The position numbers and the translations under genes were made by a program. Shown here piece after piece: positions 50,966 through 57,135 of a stretch of 64,000 nt of DNA. The notes under the pieces were generated by a model. That model was not told where the DNA came from. It worked only from the letters and a program-made list of their open reading frames with translations, and did not search any database. Numbering within the stretch: position 1 is the stretch's first letter; each line of letters starts with the position of its first letter. The stretch lies in NCBI GenBank assembly GCA_963841565.1, contig CAWJCY010000006.1, positions 256,001 through 320,000 on the forward strand. Reading direction: 5' to 3'. This DNA comes from an uncultured Nitrososphaerales archaeon. Its GTDB lineage: Archaea > Thermoproteota > Nitrososphaeria > Nitrososphaerales > Nitrososphaeraceae.

Positions 50966-52072
50966 CTAATCTGAGAACTTGTTTGTCTGATTCTCATCAT
51001 TATCGTTCTTGTCGATTGAAACTTCTCCATCTGGCCTGCTTCTTCCTTCTTTTACCAGAACATATTTGATTCTAACAAATGAAAATAGTATTGCTAATCC
51101 GAGGATTCCAAAGATAACAGCTATGGAAGTAGGGATAGGTATTTCGTATAACTCGGATATTAACATCTTGATGCCTATGAAAAGCAGTATTGCAGCCAGT
51201 CCTGGTTTCAGATAGTAAAATTTGTCTATCATACCCGCGAGAAGAAAGTACAGGCTCCTCAAGCCCAGTATGGCAAATATATTAGAGGTTATCACTAGAA
51301 ATGAGTCAGTTGTAATTGCAAGAATTGCAGGAATAGAATCAAGTGCAAACACCAAATCTGTCATCTCTATGATTACTAGTGCAATTAGCATTGGGGTTGC
51401 ATACATTATACCATCTGAGGCCCGGTGTAGAAACTTGTCTGAGGTATTACCTTTTAATTCGATAGGAATGAACTTTTTCAAAATTCTTACTGCTATGTTC
51501 TTTTCGATTTCTATGTTCTTTTCCTTCTTTGCTACTAGCATTCGTATCGCGGTGAATACCAATAGACCACCAAAGAGGTATATCGTCCAATGAAATGACT
51601 CAAGCAGAGAAATCCCTGCGAGAATGAGGGCTATCCTCAGCCCAATTGCACTTAGTATTCCAAGCATCAATACCTTGTGCTGATAGATGTATGGGATACC
51701 AAGTGATGAAAATATTAGCACAAATACAAACATGTTATCTACGCTTAGTGATTTTTCAATAGCATATCCTGTCAGGAACAAAAGTGATTTGTCATACCCC
51801 ATACTTACAAAAATTAGGCCTGCAAATACGCCCGCAAGCGAAATCCAGATTATAGTCCAACGCAATGCATGTTCGAATGTTTTCTTGCTTCTTTCCTGGT
51901 TGCTTAGAACCTGTACAGTATTGTTGTCTGAAGAGTCCTTATTCTTAGATATCCTCCTCCTTATACTCTCAATCATCCCTAAGTCTATCGCTAAAGCTAT
52001 CCCTACGAATAACCCAAAAGCAATCCACATCAAAGATTGATAGCTACTATCAGCGAATACAAGAGGTTCCAT
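50966..52072 (-). CDS. TerC/Alx-family membrane protein
   Basis: GYAIEKSLSVDNMFVF, IEMTDLVFALDSIPAI and TSNIFAILGLRSLY motifs. Confidence 0.93.
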   Translation of the reverse strand: MEPLVFADSSYQSLMWIAFGLFVGIALAIDLGMIESIRRRISKNKDSSDNNTVQVLSNQERSKKTFEHALRWTIIWISLAGVFAGLIFVSMGYDKSLLFLTGYAIEKSLSVDNMFVFVLIFSSLGIPYIYQHKVLMLGILSAIGLRIALILAGISLLESFHWTIYLFGGLLVFTAIRMLVAKKEKNIEIEKNIAVRILKKFIPIELKGNTSDKFLHRASDGIMYATPMLIALVIIEMTDLVFALDSIPAILAITTDSFLVITSNIFAILGLRSLYFLLAGMIDKFYYLKPGLAAILLFIGIKMLISELYEIPIPTSIAVIFGILGLAILFSFVRIKYVLVKEGRSRPDGEVSIDKNDNDENQTNKFSD

Positions 52073-52377
52073 CGTTTAGACGATAAGAAATTTTTAGTCT
52101 AAGATATATTTGACTTGCAGGTATTCATTGTGTTACTTTGTATTGCCACATGTTCCTGACCTTCGATAATAATAGGATCAAGAAAGCATGACAGTTAAAT
52201 TAGGTAAATGGTTATTCGTAGGTAGCCTAAACTATTTCTATTCTTTTATCTTCTACAGGACGTTAGCTGTATAAGATGGACAAGTCTTGGTAAGTCTGCA
52301 GAGAAATTTCTAATCTCATTAAGAATTGGTTTTTCAACCGGTATTTCATGACATGTTGAGCTGTGTTTACAATTTGT

Positions 52378-52761
52378 TCAAGTCATCATGTAGTTGCTAA
52401 TCTTCATAGGTTCATTGAATTTTATTCGCTGTTTTGGAAAATCGTCAACAATTACGTCAAAGCTCATTTCTCTCAAAGTTTCTGGTACGCCGATCATCAC
52501 TTGGTCGCTTGTAAGAATACCTTGAGCAGCATTTTCGATTTGGTCTTGAGATTTGTACTCCCTCATCTGTTCAATCACATATGCACAAAAAATGGCAAGC
52601 GATTCATTGGCATTGATCCTTAAGTCCATTTCAATTTTCTTTTTGATCGATACTATGACATTGAAAAATATCGATTCCTCTTCCTTGTCAGGAAATTGAA
52701 ATACCCTTATGAATGGAGGAGTATCGATTTCCCCTCGAACCATGACTTTAATATCTATCAT
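52378..52761 (-). CDS. Stand-alone urease gamma-subunit-like protein
   Basis: INANESLAIFCAYVIEQMRE...ILTSDQVMIGVPETL..M.F......KQRIKFNEPM matches the UreA pattern LN..EA.A.I...I.E.AR...L..DDVM.GV..M...PI; ATGA overlap with the upstream gene. Confidence 0.7.
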   Translation of the reverse strand: MIDIKVMVRGEIDTPPFIRVFQFPDKEEESIFFNVIVSIKKKIEMDLRINANESLAIFCAYVIEQMREYKSQDQIENAAQGILTSDQVMIGVPETLREMSFDVIVDDFPKQRIKFNEPMKISNYMMT

Positions 52762-53882
52762 CGATTGTTTCTTTTTGGGGGCGCTGCTTTAGGACCGTTC
52801 CCAAAATCATATGTATGTCCCTTCCCACGATAGAATTTTGGCCTTACAGGATTTCCTTCCATTTCCCCTTTCTTTGTGAGTGAAAGCCCTGCCAAAAGTT
52901 CGACAATTAGTCGATTTGCCAAGCCTGAAGTGATTCCTCCGTTGTAAGAGTTGACGTCGCTTACATCATAATTGGGTGCTACTTCGACCAAATCGAATGC
53001 AAACTTGTCCGGATCAAAAGAGGTGGACAATAATCGCATCAATCTCATACCCTCTCTTGAAGTCAGCCCATTGGGCTCAGGCTCGCCAGTACCTGGCGCG
53101 TAGGCGGGGTCAAACGTATCGATATCCCAACTTATGTATACCGCATCAACATTATCATTTGCCCTATCGGCCGCTTCCTTAGCGATCGGGTCAATTCCCA
53201 TTTCTTCTACGTCCAGCATTGTAAACCACTGGAAATCCTGATCAGCCATCCATTTATAGAGATCAGGTCCAGGCCAATATCCTCTTGGGCCAATTAGGGT
53301 ATAATTTTTGCCCTTTAGACAACCTAACTCCATAATCCTTCTTATATGCGCCCCATGATCATATTTGAATCCGCAAAGTCCTTGAGGAGCGCAATCCGCG
53401 TGGGTGTCGATATGGATCATACCAATGTTTTTGTACTTCTTGGCAAACGCTCTCACGTTAGCGAATGTAATTGAGTGATCTCCACCTAACATTACAGGGA
53501 TCCCATCGATATCGAGAACCTCCTTGACCTTATCTGTCATTCTTCTGTGTGATTCAATGACGTCGCCAGGAGACACTACAACGTCACCATAGTCTACAGT
53601 TTTAAATACACCAAAAGGGTCCACTCCTGTTTCAATGTTGAAATGTTCATAAGGGGGAGATGGCACAGTTGAAGCTGCTCGGATTGCGCGTGGCCCATAT
53701 CTCGCACCAGGACGTATGGTTGTTCCAAAATCAAATGGTTCTCCTATTATAGCTACATCTGGTTTTATCTTTTCTAATTCCTGACGGGACCTGAGCCAAG
53801 GCAACTTCAGAAAAGTTGGTATACCAACAAAAATCGGCTCATCATTACCTTTGTACGAATCCCCATAGAATTCCATTCCCAT
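52758..53882 (-). CDS. Ureohydrolase (agmatinase/arginase superfamily), substrate unknown
   Basis: PFD.GT..RPGARYGPRAIR, GGDHSIT, DTHAD, DHG, SWDIDTFDP, PGTGEPEP and DLVEVAP motifs. Confidence 0.9.
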   Translation of the reverse strand: MGMEFYGDSYKGNDEPIFVGIPTFLKLPWLRSRQELEKIKPDVAIIGEPFDFGTTIRPGARYGPRAIRAASTVPSPPYEHFNIETGVDPFGVFKTVDYGDVVVSPGDVIESHRRMTDKVKEVLDIDGIPVMLGGDHSITFANVRAFAKKYKNIGMIHIDTHADCAPQGLCGFKYDHGAHIRRIMELGCLKGKNYTLIGPRGYWPGPDLYKWMADQDFQWFTMLDVEEMGIDPIAKEAADRANDNVDAVYISWDIDTFDPAYAPGTGEPEPNGLTSREGMRLMRLLSTSFDPDKFAFDLVEVAPNYDVSDVNSYNGGITSGLANRLIVELLAGLSLTKKGEMEGNPVRPKFYRGKGHTYDFGNGPKAAPPKRNNR

Positions 53883-53900
53883 CTTCTAATCGCTAAATAT

Positions 53901-53930
53901 TAGGACACGTACAATGTTTTTAAGCATTTC
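53901..53930 (-). promoter_or_regulatory. Ureohydrolase operon promoter sharing a motif with glnA
   Basis: Minus strand reads GAAATGCTTAAAAACATTGTACGTGTCCTA. Confidence 0.5.
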
Positions 53931-54028
53931 TAAGTAGTTTACGAATCTCTTTAACTCGCTGATCCGACTACATAAAGTCATATGTTACTGGCTTTGGGAT
54001 CAGATACTTACTGATAATGAGAATTAAT

Positions 54029-54070
54029 GGTATGGTTAGGGTATGGTCAGGGTATGGTCAGTGTCAGTGT
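54029..54070. repeat. 11-bp tandem repeat x3
   Basis: GGTATGGTTAG GGTATGGTCAG GGTATGGTCAG followed by TGTCAGTGT. Confidence 0.8.
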
Positions 54071-54331
54071 ATACTAATGGTCTCGTTAAGTGATCTACAT
54101 TTTATACATTGAATTCATTGATATTAAGCTAAACCAACCATGTAGAATGTGATACAAAGACCACAATCCTCTAGTAGTTAGCTATCCATAAAATGAAGAT
54201 ATGAAGAGATTTGTCGAATGATATACTAACGTAATCTACGCATTGTATAATACTATACTGATGACCATGCATTTTAAAATGAATGATAGATCAATACTTT
54301 TTTATAGTTACTCCCCTTATAGGAAAATGCG

Positions 54332-54586
54332 ATGAATGCGGTTAGAAATGAAAGTGATGTTCAAGCTCGAGCAGTAGGAGCGATTGAGACACTGTATGGA
54401 AAAGGCATTTCGGATTTAAAGCTAAGATCACTATTCTCTCTTCCTAATGAGCAAAAAAGAGAGGAATGGGATGCACAGACAACTTTTATGTTAAATAACC
54501 TTCAATATGTGGTCGATCTTACGATTAGGGAACAAGATGGTATCATAACTAATGCTAGGCTGATAGACGTAATGAAACCTCTTTAA
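54332..54586 (+). CDS. Small hypothetical protein
   Basis: 84-aa ORF preceded by a TTTTTATAG TATA-like box; alpha/beta composition. Confidence 0.65.
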   Translation: MNAVRNESDVQARAVGAIETLYGKGISDLKLRSLFSLPNEQKREEWDAQTTFMLNNLQYVVDLTIREQDGIITNARLIDVMKPL

Positions 54587-54840
54587 CCTACTGGCATTTC
54601 GTTCTCAAGGATTCATTTTCGTAGGCTCCTAGCCAAGAAAGTCATCGCTGATGACTGATACGAATCCCATTTTAATGGCCAAAAATTTTTTTGGGTCGCC
54701 ACAAGTCTAGAAATGTTTGTTTTAAGAATGCATAAATTCGTAATATACATTATTCAATCGTACTTTATTATACCCTAATATTGGTAGTATACATATACTG
54801 AGGAAGTATTTTTATATATAATGTCTATAACCATAACACT

Positions 54841-55201
54841 ATGAAAGAATTGGATGTCTTTATCCGTTCAGAGCATCGTTCGAAAGTGACAGATATACTC
54901 CAAAAGAATAGAGCAGGCATCAGTTTTTTCGAGGTCCTTGGTACAGGGAGTACACCAAGTGCAGCTCCGGAAGTAGTACATTCATACAGAACTGGTAGAA
55001 CTACTGTCCCTGAATTCGTAACAAGGCTTTTGGTTATGACAGTCGTACCTGATTCTTCTGCAAAAAAAAATAGTCGACGAGCTCGTAAATAGTTTCGGTA
55101 AAACATCAGAGCCTTATAGAGTGCTCTTTGTGAAGGATGTCACTGAAGCTTATCAATTTGGTACGAAGGTAGTCGGGGAGGAAATCCTGACACCTAAATG
55201 A
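54841..55201 (+). CDS. P-II family nitrogen signalling protein; +1 frameshift in the A9 tract at 55062-55070
   Basis: MKELDVFIR...GISFFEVLGTG...YRTG...PEFVTR; removing one A gives AKKIVDELVNSFG...LFVKDVTEAYQFGTKVVGEEIL*. Confidence 0.8.
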
Positions 55202-55299
55202 CCCGAACCGTTGCAAAATCTAACCTCCTGTATAGGCGTTACTTTGTCGCTTCCACAACCTATGAACTATGAGCAGTTGTGTGGCTAATGGTTTAATGG

Positions 55300-55357
55300 G
55301 AATTCACTGATTCCACTACTCTAGACACTCAGAATTCACTGGTTCCACTATTTGACA
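55300..55357. repeat. Imperfect direct repeat pair, 32-bp period
   Basis: GAATTCACTGATTCCACTACTCTAGACA and GAATTCACTGGTTCCACTATTTGACA. Confidence 0.75.
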
Positions 55358-55430
55358 GGATTAATTGAAAAACCGGTCCGGTTCGCATAAATGTACGAGA
55401 TTAGAATGATGCAAACCGCCGAATCTCAAA

Positions 55431-57135
55431 TCAATAATAGTGATGCATAGGCCTTTGTTGTTTTCCTAGTCGATCGAAATAGTGATCATGCTTCTTGTCT
55501 CCTCCTGGATGTGAATGTTCTACACCATCAGCGTGAGTATGAGTCTGCATTTTTGGTTTAGCCATTAAAACATCATCTACGCGCAATAACATGCACGTTA
55601 CCTCCACAGCTGTTTTAAGGACTTGTTCTTTTACTATCGATGGTTCTATTACTGACGAAATGATATTCTCCACCTTTCTGCTTTTTGAATCAATTCCATA
55701 CCACCTAATCTTGCTGTTAGCAGGCAAGTGTTTAGATCTCAATTGTACTATCGTGTTGACGGTATCCATTCCGGCATTTCTAGCAAGCGTGGTTGGTATT
55801 TCCTCTAATGCTTCAGCAAATTTCTGAAGTACGAGCTGAACACGGCCTTTAATTAGTCTAGATCTATCTCTAATGATGGCTGCGACCTTCATTTCAGTAG
55901 CACCAGCTCCTCCAACAATTCGAGGTGATAGAATATAGTCTCTTAGAACAGCAAATCCGTCCAATGCTGAACGGTGGTACTCATCAAGTACTCTTTTTGA
56001 ATTTGCCCTCAACAAGAGAGTCACTGATTTAGGATTTTTACATTCATCGATAAAGACCATCTTGTCATCACCAACCAATTTTTCATACACTTTCCCTGCA
56101 TACCCCAAGTTATTAGATGGTATTGGGCCATTCAAATCTTTAACAACCTTTGCACCTGTTGATCTCTCCAACCACAACATATCATTTTCTTTAACTCTAT
56201 GAAGGGTGAGAATATCTGCTCTTGATAATCGCTGTTGAACTATTTTGTTTATTCCCTTCTGAGAAATCACGATATTCGCACCAGACTCTATAATATTCTG
56301 TACCTTTATTTCGAGTAGTTCGTATTCAGATTTGTAGTATTTCTCTAGCTGACCACATGATGATATATTCAATTCAGAATTAGTCCGAGTCCTGCTCCTA
56401 TCGAGTTCTTCGTTAGTTAAAAGTATCTTGGCGTTTTCAATCTGTTTGACCATGGTTGAAGCTGCAAAGGTCTTGTCAATCACCGTGCCTCTTATTAGGG
56501 TAGTATCAGAAGGGTTACCCAGTTTTTCTTCAATTTTGATATCGTCTATATCAATAGTCTTGTTTCTCAAATCTGAGATGCTCCAAACGGCCTCAACTAC
56601 TAGATCAGCGAGCACTATTATTTTCTCTAGCAACTATGCCTGAGATAGACCTAGTTTGAAGACAAGTCTCTGCCAACTTACTCATTACTTCTCTGTGTAA
56701 ACTGGCTGAGGATACTGAAATTTGACCGAGAGTTTGAAGTGAGATTTCTAAGCCTTTGAGATACCCATCAATTATAACTGATGGAGCGATTCCATAGAAC
56801 AACAGTTCTTGTGCCTTCGACAATAATTCTCCCGACAAGATGACAACAGATGTAGTACCGTCTCCTACCTCATTGTCTACTGCATTGGCCGCCTCTATCA
56901 GAATTTTTGCTGCAGGATGTTCAACATCAAGTTTTCGCAATATCGCTGAACCATCCTTTGTCACCGTGATCTCTCCCATAATATCGATATACACTTTTTC
57001 CAATCCACAAGGACCAAATGAATTTTTAATCAGGTTTGAGATCAATGTAGCTGCCAAGAGATTATACTGACGACTCTTGCCCTCTTGACTTCTGCCAAAA
57101 CCATCACCGAATAGCTGCTCCTTGCGTGGATCCAT
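55431..57135 (-). CDS. Divergent group II chaperonin (thermosome-like) with His-rich C-terminal tail; +1 frameshift near 56634
   Basis: SFGPCG.EK, VTKDG, VEHPAAK, EVGDGTTS, GGAGATE, LARNAG.D and IEP..VK motifs; tail THTHADGVEHSHPGGDKKHDHY...MHHYY. Confidence 0.88.

Follow-up and report, generated by a model that had tools for sequence, protein, structure and literature searches.

The gene at 52378..52761 on the minus strand of the window appears to encode a UreA (urease gamma subunit) paralogue that has diverged and would no longer be an ordinary urease subunit, and its start codon overlaps the stop codon of a gene for an arginase-family ureohydrolase. The window, i.e. the whole stretch of 64,000 nucleotides analysed, corresponds to positions 256001–320000 of contig C6 in a 13-contig genome of 2.05 Mb that is 88% complete. 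In our preferred reading, to which we give a probability of about 0.5, the paralogue derives from a ureA duplicate and is a non-catalytic accessory partner of the upstream ureohydrolase, a putatively urea-releasing enzyme that is probably metal-matured. We infer most strongly that the hydrolase and the paralogue act together in a urease context. The features of the locus are as follows:

50966..52072, minus strand: TerC-family membrane protein (Pfam TerC, 163.8 bits), downstream of the pair
52378..52761, minus strand: UreA-like gene, 127 aa; urease-gamma fold with an N-terminal β-hairpin of ~20 aa and a short C-terminal tail
52758..52761, minus strand: ATGA overlap (4 nt) of the hydrolase stop and the UreA-like start; the plus strand reads tcat
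52758..53882, minus strand: arginase-family ureohydrolase, 374 aa (Pfam Arginase, 266 bits); motifs GGDH, DxHxD and DxD
54332..54586, plus strand: 84-aa protein of no family; an island member with 60 distinct homologues in AOA loci
54841..55092 (or 54841–55110), plus strand: P-II-like gene with a weak Pfam P-II match; frameshift near the 3′ end relative to the same-genus locus L035
55431..57135, minus strand: thermosome (group II chaperonin) paralogue (NCBIfam thermosome), in two ORFs of 176 and 400 aa
57497..59011, plus strand: sodium:solute symporter SSF (NCBIfam sss superfamily)

An earlier note, made from the sequence alone, had described a UreA-like core in the 127-residue product, and both profile and fold bear this out. 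The protein passes the gathering score of Pfam Urease_gamma (PF00547; 39.9 against 23.9 bits, E 5.5e-10), with profile positions 6–88 of 99 aligned to residues 26–107, and a sequence search of the PDB returned urease gamma chains only (best 4fur and 1a5k, E ~4e-8). The NCBIfam equivalog cut-offs for ureA itself are missed by far (NF009712, 40.3 against 123; TIGR00193, 34.6 against 82.3). An AlphaFold2 model computed with 43 family sequences (pLDDT 92.7, pTM 0.86) places two strands, at residues 2–9 and 17–23, ahead of the UreA core; searched against the PDB with Foldseek, this model has urease gamma subunits or domains as each of its best 17 matches (E as low as 2e-6), with TM (target) of ~0.8 and identities of 18–23%. 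The paralogue thus has the same fold as urease gamma (PDB 2kau, 4fur, 2fvh), and the L..N..E and V..GV.E motifs are common to both. The alignment pairs residue 21 with Met1 of canonical UreA, so that the N-terminal extension measures ~20 residues rather than the ~30 proposed earlier; the C-terminal extension relative to canonical UreA is of ~8 residues.

The gene is publicly annotated as ‘urease subunit gamma’, and a protein database holds 125 clusters of it, nearly all of 127 aa, with Nitrososphaeraceae as the source of those named by organism. The reading frame is intact, at 121–143 aa, in all 27 aligned sequences; 91 distinct homologues were found in the loci examined, and the within-genus dN/dS of 0.19–0.28 indicates purifying selection. 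Metatranscriptome contigs from soil and rhizosphere gave shares of 0.05–0.18 only, which by themselves are not evidence of expression.

Comparison of the 91 distinct paralogues with 23 canonical AOA UreAs reveals how far the two have moved apart. Ten positions beyond Met1 are conserved in both sets (L47, N50, E53, R67, L83, V88, G91, V92, E94 and P118), the paralogue does not keep 47 that are conserved in the canonical set, and 19 are conserved in the paralogue only. The last group includes I2, G10, E11, D13 and P16 of the hairpin, with G10, E11, D13 and P16 near-invariant, and Y124 of the tail. In a quick unrooted tree, all 38 sampled paralogues lie on one side of a branch with 99% SH-aLRT support, and the branch between paralogues and canonical UreA amounts to a total of ~2 changes per column. 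Two paralogues of family f3, considered as a stem of the paralogue family, fell on the canonical side of this tree on a long branch of their own and, on this quick tree, are not favoured in that role. Compared with canonical UreA, the paralogue adds an N-terminal β-hairpin and a C-terminal tail and drops 47 conserved positions; its gene follows one of the arginase family instead of preceding ureB/ureC, in a genome that has a canonical ureA as well.

The overlap of the UreA-like start with the hydrolase stop, claimed in the earlier note, was confirmed by reading ATGA at 52758–52761 on the minus strand: the UreA-like ATG occupies 52761–52759 and the hydrolase TGA 52760–52758, with two bases in common. 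Of 27 other genomes, 15 have the same −4 overlap and nine have gaps of 5–22 nt; of the remaining three junctions, two have an uncertain start and one is cut by the end of the locus. Within the Nitrososphaeraceae, the window locus and 19 others were compared, and 20/20 have the hydrolase immediately ahead of the UreA-like gene on its strand (19/19 if L020, from the unpublished genome G035, is set aside). A scan with one genome per species gave 131 relatives of the UreA-like protein, of which the best 80 loci were examined; all are from AOA, with Nitrososphaera, Nitrosopolaris, Nitrosotenuis, Nitrosarchaeum and Nitrosotalea among the record names. The hydrolase is immediately upstream in 79 of these best 80 loci (Nitrososphaeraceae and Nitrosopumilaceae), the exception (L052) being a locus that begins 53 nt before the gene; in L041 the hydrolase match is partial only.

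The occurrence of both genes was followed through a sample of the order comprising 151 genomes: the one to which the window belongs and 150 evenly drawn ones of at least 90% completeness. The paralogue is matched over its full length (from model position 7 or earlier, with E ≤1.4e-17) in 31/151 genomes, in each of which the hydrolase adjoins it (31/31); a hydrolase orthologue (76–100% identity) is present in 36/151, and a Urease_alpha domain (ureC) in 58/151. Thirty of the 31 paralogue genomes and 35 of the 36 hydrolase genomes carry ureC, against 58/151 overall; the ureC-less exception, G156, has a canonical-type ureA match 5.3 kb from the pair and is the only one of the 93 genomes without a ureC match to contain the pair. 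This co-occurrence extends over many genera in no fewer than two families, and the figures are to be read as counts, not statistics, since related genomes are not independent. A search of 42 longer candidates for fused hydrolase–UreA forms gave none, which is weak evidence against a partnership. Prediction of a 1:1 complex of hydrolase and paralogue, run without controls, scored 0.00 and speaks neither for nor against binding.

The upstream enzyme has the features of an arginase-family hydrolase under exceptional constraint. H136, D159, H161, D163, D253 and D255, which we take to be the metal ligands following assignments in the arginase literature, are invariant in 28 hydrolase sequences (two paralogues among them), and a C-terminal tail of ~45 aa is conserved. 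The within-genus dN/dS is 0.010–0.016. Identity to the window protein is 90–98% across genera of the Nitrososphaeraceae, and 81–96% for full-length hydrolases of the Nitrosopumilaceae; against their own window counterparts, the UreA-like paralogue gives 32–85%, the adjoining chaperonin 47–89% and the symporter 53–99%. Synonymous sites are saturated between genera, so the high identity of the hydrolase does not stem from recent transfer.

Sequence searches of the PDB with the hydrolase gave guanidinobutyrase 3nio as the best match (E 2e-52), followed by the guanidinases 7esr and 9fek (second and third, E ~1e-48), proclavaminate amidinohydrolase and guanidinopropionase. By name, the best NCBIfam family is agmatinase SpeB (TIGR01230), the name used in the AOA literature; the hydrolase misses both agmatinase cut-offs (TIGR01230, 156.6 against 174.3; NF002564, 203.6 against 302). 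No NCBIfam equivalog cut-off was reached by the hydrolase or by its two paralogues in the genome, and hence none of the arginase-family paralogues can be named agmatinase by score. Another arginase-family paralogue, on contig C4, occurs in 36 of the 38 genomes sampled from the family, with 50–62% identity between genera. It is this C4 paralogue that is the widespread one; the hydrolase considered here is confined to 36/151 genomes (35 of the 36 with ureC) and is not the housekeeping agmatinase. A guanidino substrate, and hence urea as the product, is predicted from its family membership.

An Rfam scan of 51900–55500, at E up to 1, gave no match, and thus no riboswitch in that interval. Three tandem 11-mers lie at 54029–54061 on the minus strand, ~150 nt upstream of the hydrolase start (two copies of ctgaccatacc and one of ctaaccatacc), and may be a candidate regulator site.

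Hydrolases that lack a full-length partner inform on how closely the two proteins could depend on each other. Three of the 36 hydrolase genomes (G062, G080 and G182) have no UreA-type gene after the hydrolase, and in two others (G074 and G090) it is followed by a UreA paralogue of 109–110 aa with 38–41% identity to the canonical protein; the genes there run hydrolase, paralogue, NicO, ureA, ureB, ureC. The nearest relative of the hydrolase outside this group is a haloarchaeal ‘agmatinase family protein’ with 54% identity (the next relatives have 33–48%), encoded on megaplasmids of Natronorubrum, Haloarcula and Halalkalicoccus. Like the AOA hydrolase, it stands beside urease or SSF, stress and chaperonin genes: in Natronorubrum bangense it is ~2 kb from ureB-C-A-G-D-E-F, and on pNG700 of Haloarcula marismortui it adjoins an SSF symporter, a universal stress protein and a cpn60/TCP-1 protein. 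Unlike the AOA hydrolase, it has no UreA-like gene behind it at either of the two loci examined. On the haloarchaeal megaplasmids (loci L129 and L130), a PhoU-like gene also accompanies the SSF, universal stress and cpn60/TCP-1 genes.

This haloarchaeal neighbourhood mirrors the AOA island, which hints at a shared or transferred module. As five hydrolase genomes and the haloarchaeal relatives do without a full-length partner, the partner is accessory rather than obligatory, the hydrolase evidently can work alone, and the association of hydrolase with urease is older or wider than the partner. The earlier note had read the gene as a repurposed UreA, serving either as a structural subunit of the hydrolase or as an adaptor docking it to urease. 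Of this reading, the UreA fold, the coupling to the hydrolase gene and the tie of both genes to urease are supported; the lineages without the partner speak against a structural subunit that is obligatory. The partner evolves far faster than the hydrolase (39–85% against 76–99% identity), which would suit a contact that is loose or regulatory better than one that is rigid and structural, and between a subunit and a urease-docking adaptor neither appears preferable on present data.

Urease genes are present in the same genome as the pair. Canonical ureA (150.7 bits), ureB, ureC and ureD are located on contig C12, and the UreA-like gene is consequently not the ‘orphan’ it was once called; the accompanying observation that the window has no ureB or ureC is correct, matches to Urease_alpha and Urease_beta being confined to C12. 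The only ureC of the genome is split into ORFs of 247 and 325 aa in different frames (L003 144–1872, minus strand, C12). The thermosome paralogue of the window is split by a 1-nt insertion relative to the intact gene of L035, a locus of the same genus, whose P-II-like gene is likewise intact (175 aa, 37.5 bits). Three genes of the urea island (ureC, thermosome paralogue and P-II-like) are therefore broken in one assembly, which could reflect assembly indel errors or real decay.

Across 11 loci, with 148 ORFs annotated by Pfam, a gene island recurs around the pair. The SSF symporter occurs in 11/11 annotated loci and the thermosome paralogue in 10/11; universal stress, TPR and ParB-like proteins recur as neighbours, and in several loci ureABC lies within a few kb of the pair (L025, L026, L029, L031, L098, L116, L120, L121, L122 and L127, among others). 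The order in the window (TerC, paralogue, hydrolase, 84-aa gene, P-II-like gene, thermosome paralogue, SSF) is that of the island. The 84-aa protein has no Pfam or NCBIfam match; its homologues adjoin the hydrolase or come directly after ureC. TerC also follows the pair in other loci of the same genus, and many other lineages have a NicO-type transporter at that place. Parts of this island have been noted before: the available portions of PMC10753782 and PMC11131427 name this type of SSF as a dur3/SSS urea transporter, those of PMC5797428 describe a urease-locus chaperonin, and those of PMC11131427 an expressed ‘agmatinase (SpeB)’ clustered with an SSS transporter. The UreA-like gene is not mentioned in the text, as far as available, of PMC5797428 or PMC11131427, whose figures and supplements may draw it.

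Several features of these loci concern nickel. A search of 129 sequences (the window and 128 loci) found a gene for a NicO-like membrane protein of 250 aa with a His-rich loop in 44, mostly starting within tens of bases after the paralogue; where the paralogue is absent (L123–L125), the NicO-like gene follows the hydrolase directly. Hydrolases of one related family (L121 5521–6837, L122 7–1323 and L123 2894–4147) have a His-rich tail of ~50 aa. Together, NicO and the His-rich tails suggest a nickel link of the AOA hydrolase. The island of L029 also holds NikR, NicO and ureEFGD. The window's own genome (88% complete) gave no match to NicO (PF03824), with TerC at the corresponding position, and no HypA/HypB-type helper was seen among the 148 annotated ORFs of the 11 loci.

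The arrangement may be compared with two characterised arginase-family systems. The nickel-dependent guanidine hydrolase GdmH and the comammox guanidinase (PDB 7esr, 7oi1, 9fek) are of the arginase family, and the urea which they release goes to urease; the AOA hydrolase differs in being without a HypA/HypB-type helper (148 ORFs) or a riboswitch (51900–55500). Guanidine specificity is ascribed to Thr97 and Trp305 in the part of PMC11410670 available. By our own mapping on the PDB alignment, with an offset of +2 in the PDB chain, the Thr is kept in the window's hydrolase (GTT) and the Trp position is a Glu (PGTGEPEP against PGTGWPEP); the GdmH-type guanidinase signature is not matched. The nickel-dependent metformin hydrolase (PDB 8snf, 8ryi) is reported to be a heteromer of two arginase-family subunits (PMC11271267), and its chains are among the PDB matches of the AOA hydrolase. 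Its partner has the arginase fold, whereas the AOA partner has the UreA fold, and a heteromer would here be predicted from the gene coupling.

In the mechanism that we propose, the paralogue and the hydrolase would be made from one transcript in fixed proportion, as the overlapping stop and start suggest, and the paralogue would bind the hydrolase physically. The conserved N-terminal β-hairpin and the C-terminal tyrosine may form the new contact surface. The hydrolase would free urea from a guanidino compound, and the separate urease of the organism would convert the urea to ammonia, the energy substrate of AOA. The partner would presumably aid assembly, stability or metal loading, or else the transfer to urease.

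Two rival explanations keep the hydrolase as a partner. The paralogue might be a docking adaptor that sits on urease (UreB/UreC) and holds the hydrolase by its hairpin, such that urea is handed over directly. Its near confinement to genomes with urease (30/31, against 58/151 overall), the retention of canonical UreA motifs (L47, N50, E53, R67, V88, G91, V92, E94, P118) and the gene order of L121 and L122, in which the hydrolase, UreA paralogue, NicO, ureA, ureB and ureC follow one another on one strand, are consistent with such a role. The loss of the 47 canonical-only positions argues against an intact urease-binding surface, the pair and ureABC are on different contigs in the window's genome, and, as urea diffuses freely, channelling would bring little obvious gain; we regard docking as unlikely. 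Alternatively, the paralogue may be a metal-centre assembly factor that aids the hydrolase in receiving nickel or a mixed Ni/Mn centre, for instance by bringing it to the urease maturation proteins UreDFG/E or to the adjoining NicO-type transporter. Nickel-dependent members of the arginase family exist, with guanidinase (PMC11410670) and metformin hydrolase (reported in PMC11271267) as examples. The position of the NicO-like gene in the 44 of 129 sequences, mostly directly after the paralogue and after the hydrolase itself where the paralogue is missing (L123–L125), the His-rich tails of L121–L123, and the NikR, NicO and ureEFGD genes of L029 also point in this direction. Against it, NicO might be there just for urease, it is retained beside hydrolases that lack the paralogue, and the window's genome, at 88% completeness, has TerC in place of a PF03824 match. 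In addition, UreD is known to contact mainly the alpha and beta subunits of urease rather than gamma. We regard a role in metal loading as likewise unlikely.

Two further readings dispense with a partnership altogether. The paralogue could be an alternative gamma subunit, ‘UreA2’, which replaces UreA under some condition, its position reflecting shared regulation only. Pfam membership, the fold and the public annotation as ‘urease subunit gamma’ would agree with this, as would the second ure gene sets reported in some Nitrososphaera (PMC4084955 and PMC10753782, in the portions available). No additional ureB or ureC ever accompanies it in the operon of the pair, however; it scores far under the ureA equivalog cut-offs, it has lost 47 canonical positions and gained two conserved extensions, and its translational coupling is to the hydrolase rather than to ure genes, all of which make this substitution quite unlikely. 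The fast divergence relative to the adjoining hydrolase might, finally, be taken for that of a decaying ureA duplicate without function. Such decay is very improbable given a frame that is intact (121–143 aa) in 27/27 aligned sequences, 91 distinct forms, a dN/dS of 0.19–0.28, near-invariant family-specific residues, a confident structure model, and retention in two archaeal families.

UreA-fold proteins and arginase-family hydrolases are each already known. No account of a UreA paralogue tied to a gene of the arginase family came to light in the open-access literature searched, which was covered as text; figures and supplements (e.g. Fig. 4 of PMC5797428 and Fig. S11 of PMC11131427) may draw the gene. 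If the partner, as we favour, binds the hydrolase, a structural subunit of urease would have been re-used by an unrelated enzyme, a case for which the literature searched gave no precedent, and the annotations ‘urease subunit gamma’ and ‘agmatinase/SpeB’ would both be corrected.

Among the sources of organic nitrogen that feed archaeal nitrifiers, urea and cyanate are described in the portions of the literature available, and the present locus is a concrete candidate route for the use of organic nitrogen by AOA. The hydrolase occurs in urease-bearing AOA, evolves with a dN/dS of ~0.01, and stands beside a urea transporter and a partner apparently recruited from urease; it is 76–99% identical across two families, against 50–62% for its sister paralogue across the genera of one. 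A bolder reading, speculative and with only a small chance of being right as a whole, is that of a hitherto undescribed two-enzyme route, in which a UreA-derived adaptor would join a near-invariant Ni/Mn ureohydrolase to urease or to the nickel-loading machinery, such that a guanidino compound from soil or water is converted to urea and then to ammonia for energy. Were this the case, the AOA ‘agmatinase’ would serve to acquire substrate, with a subunit borrowed from urease.
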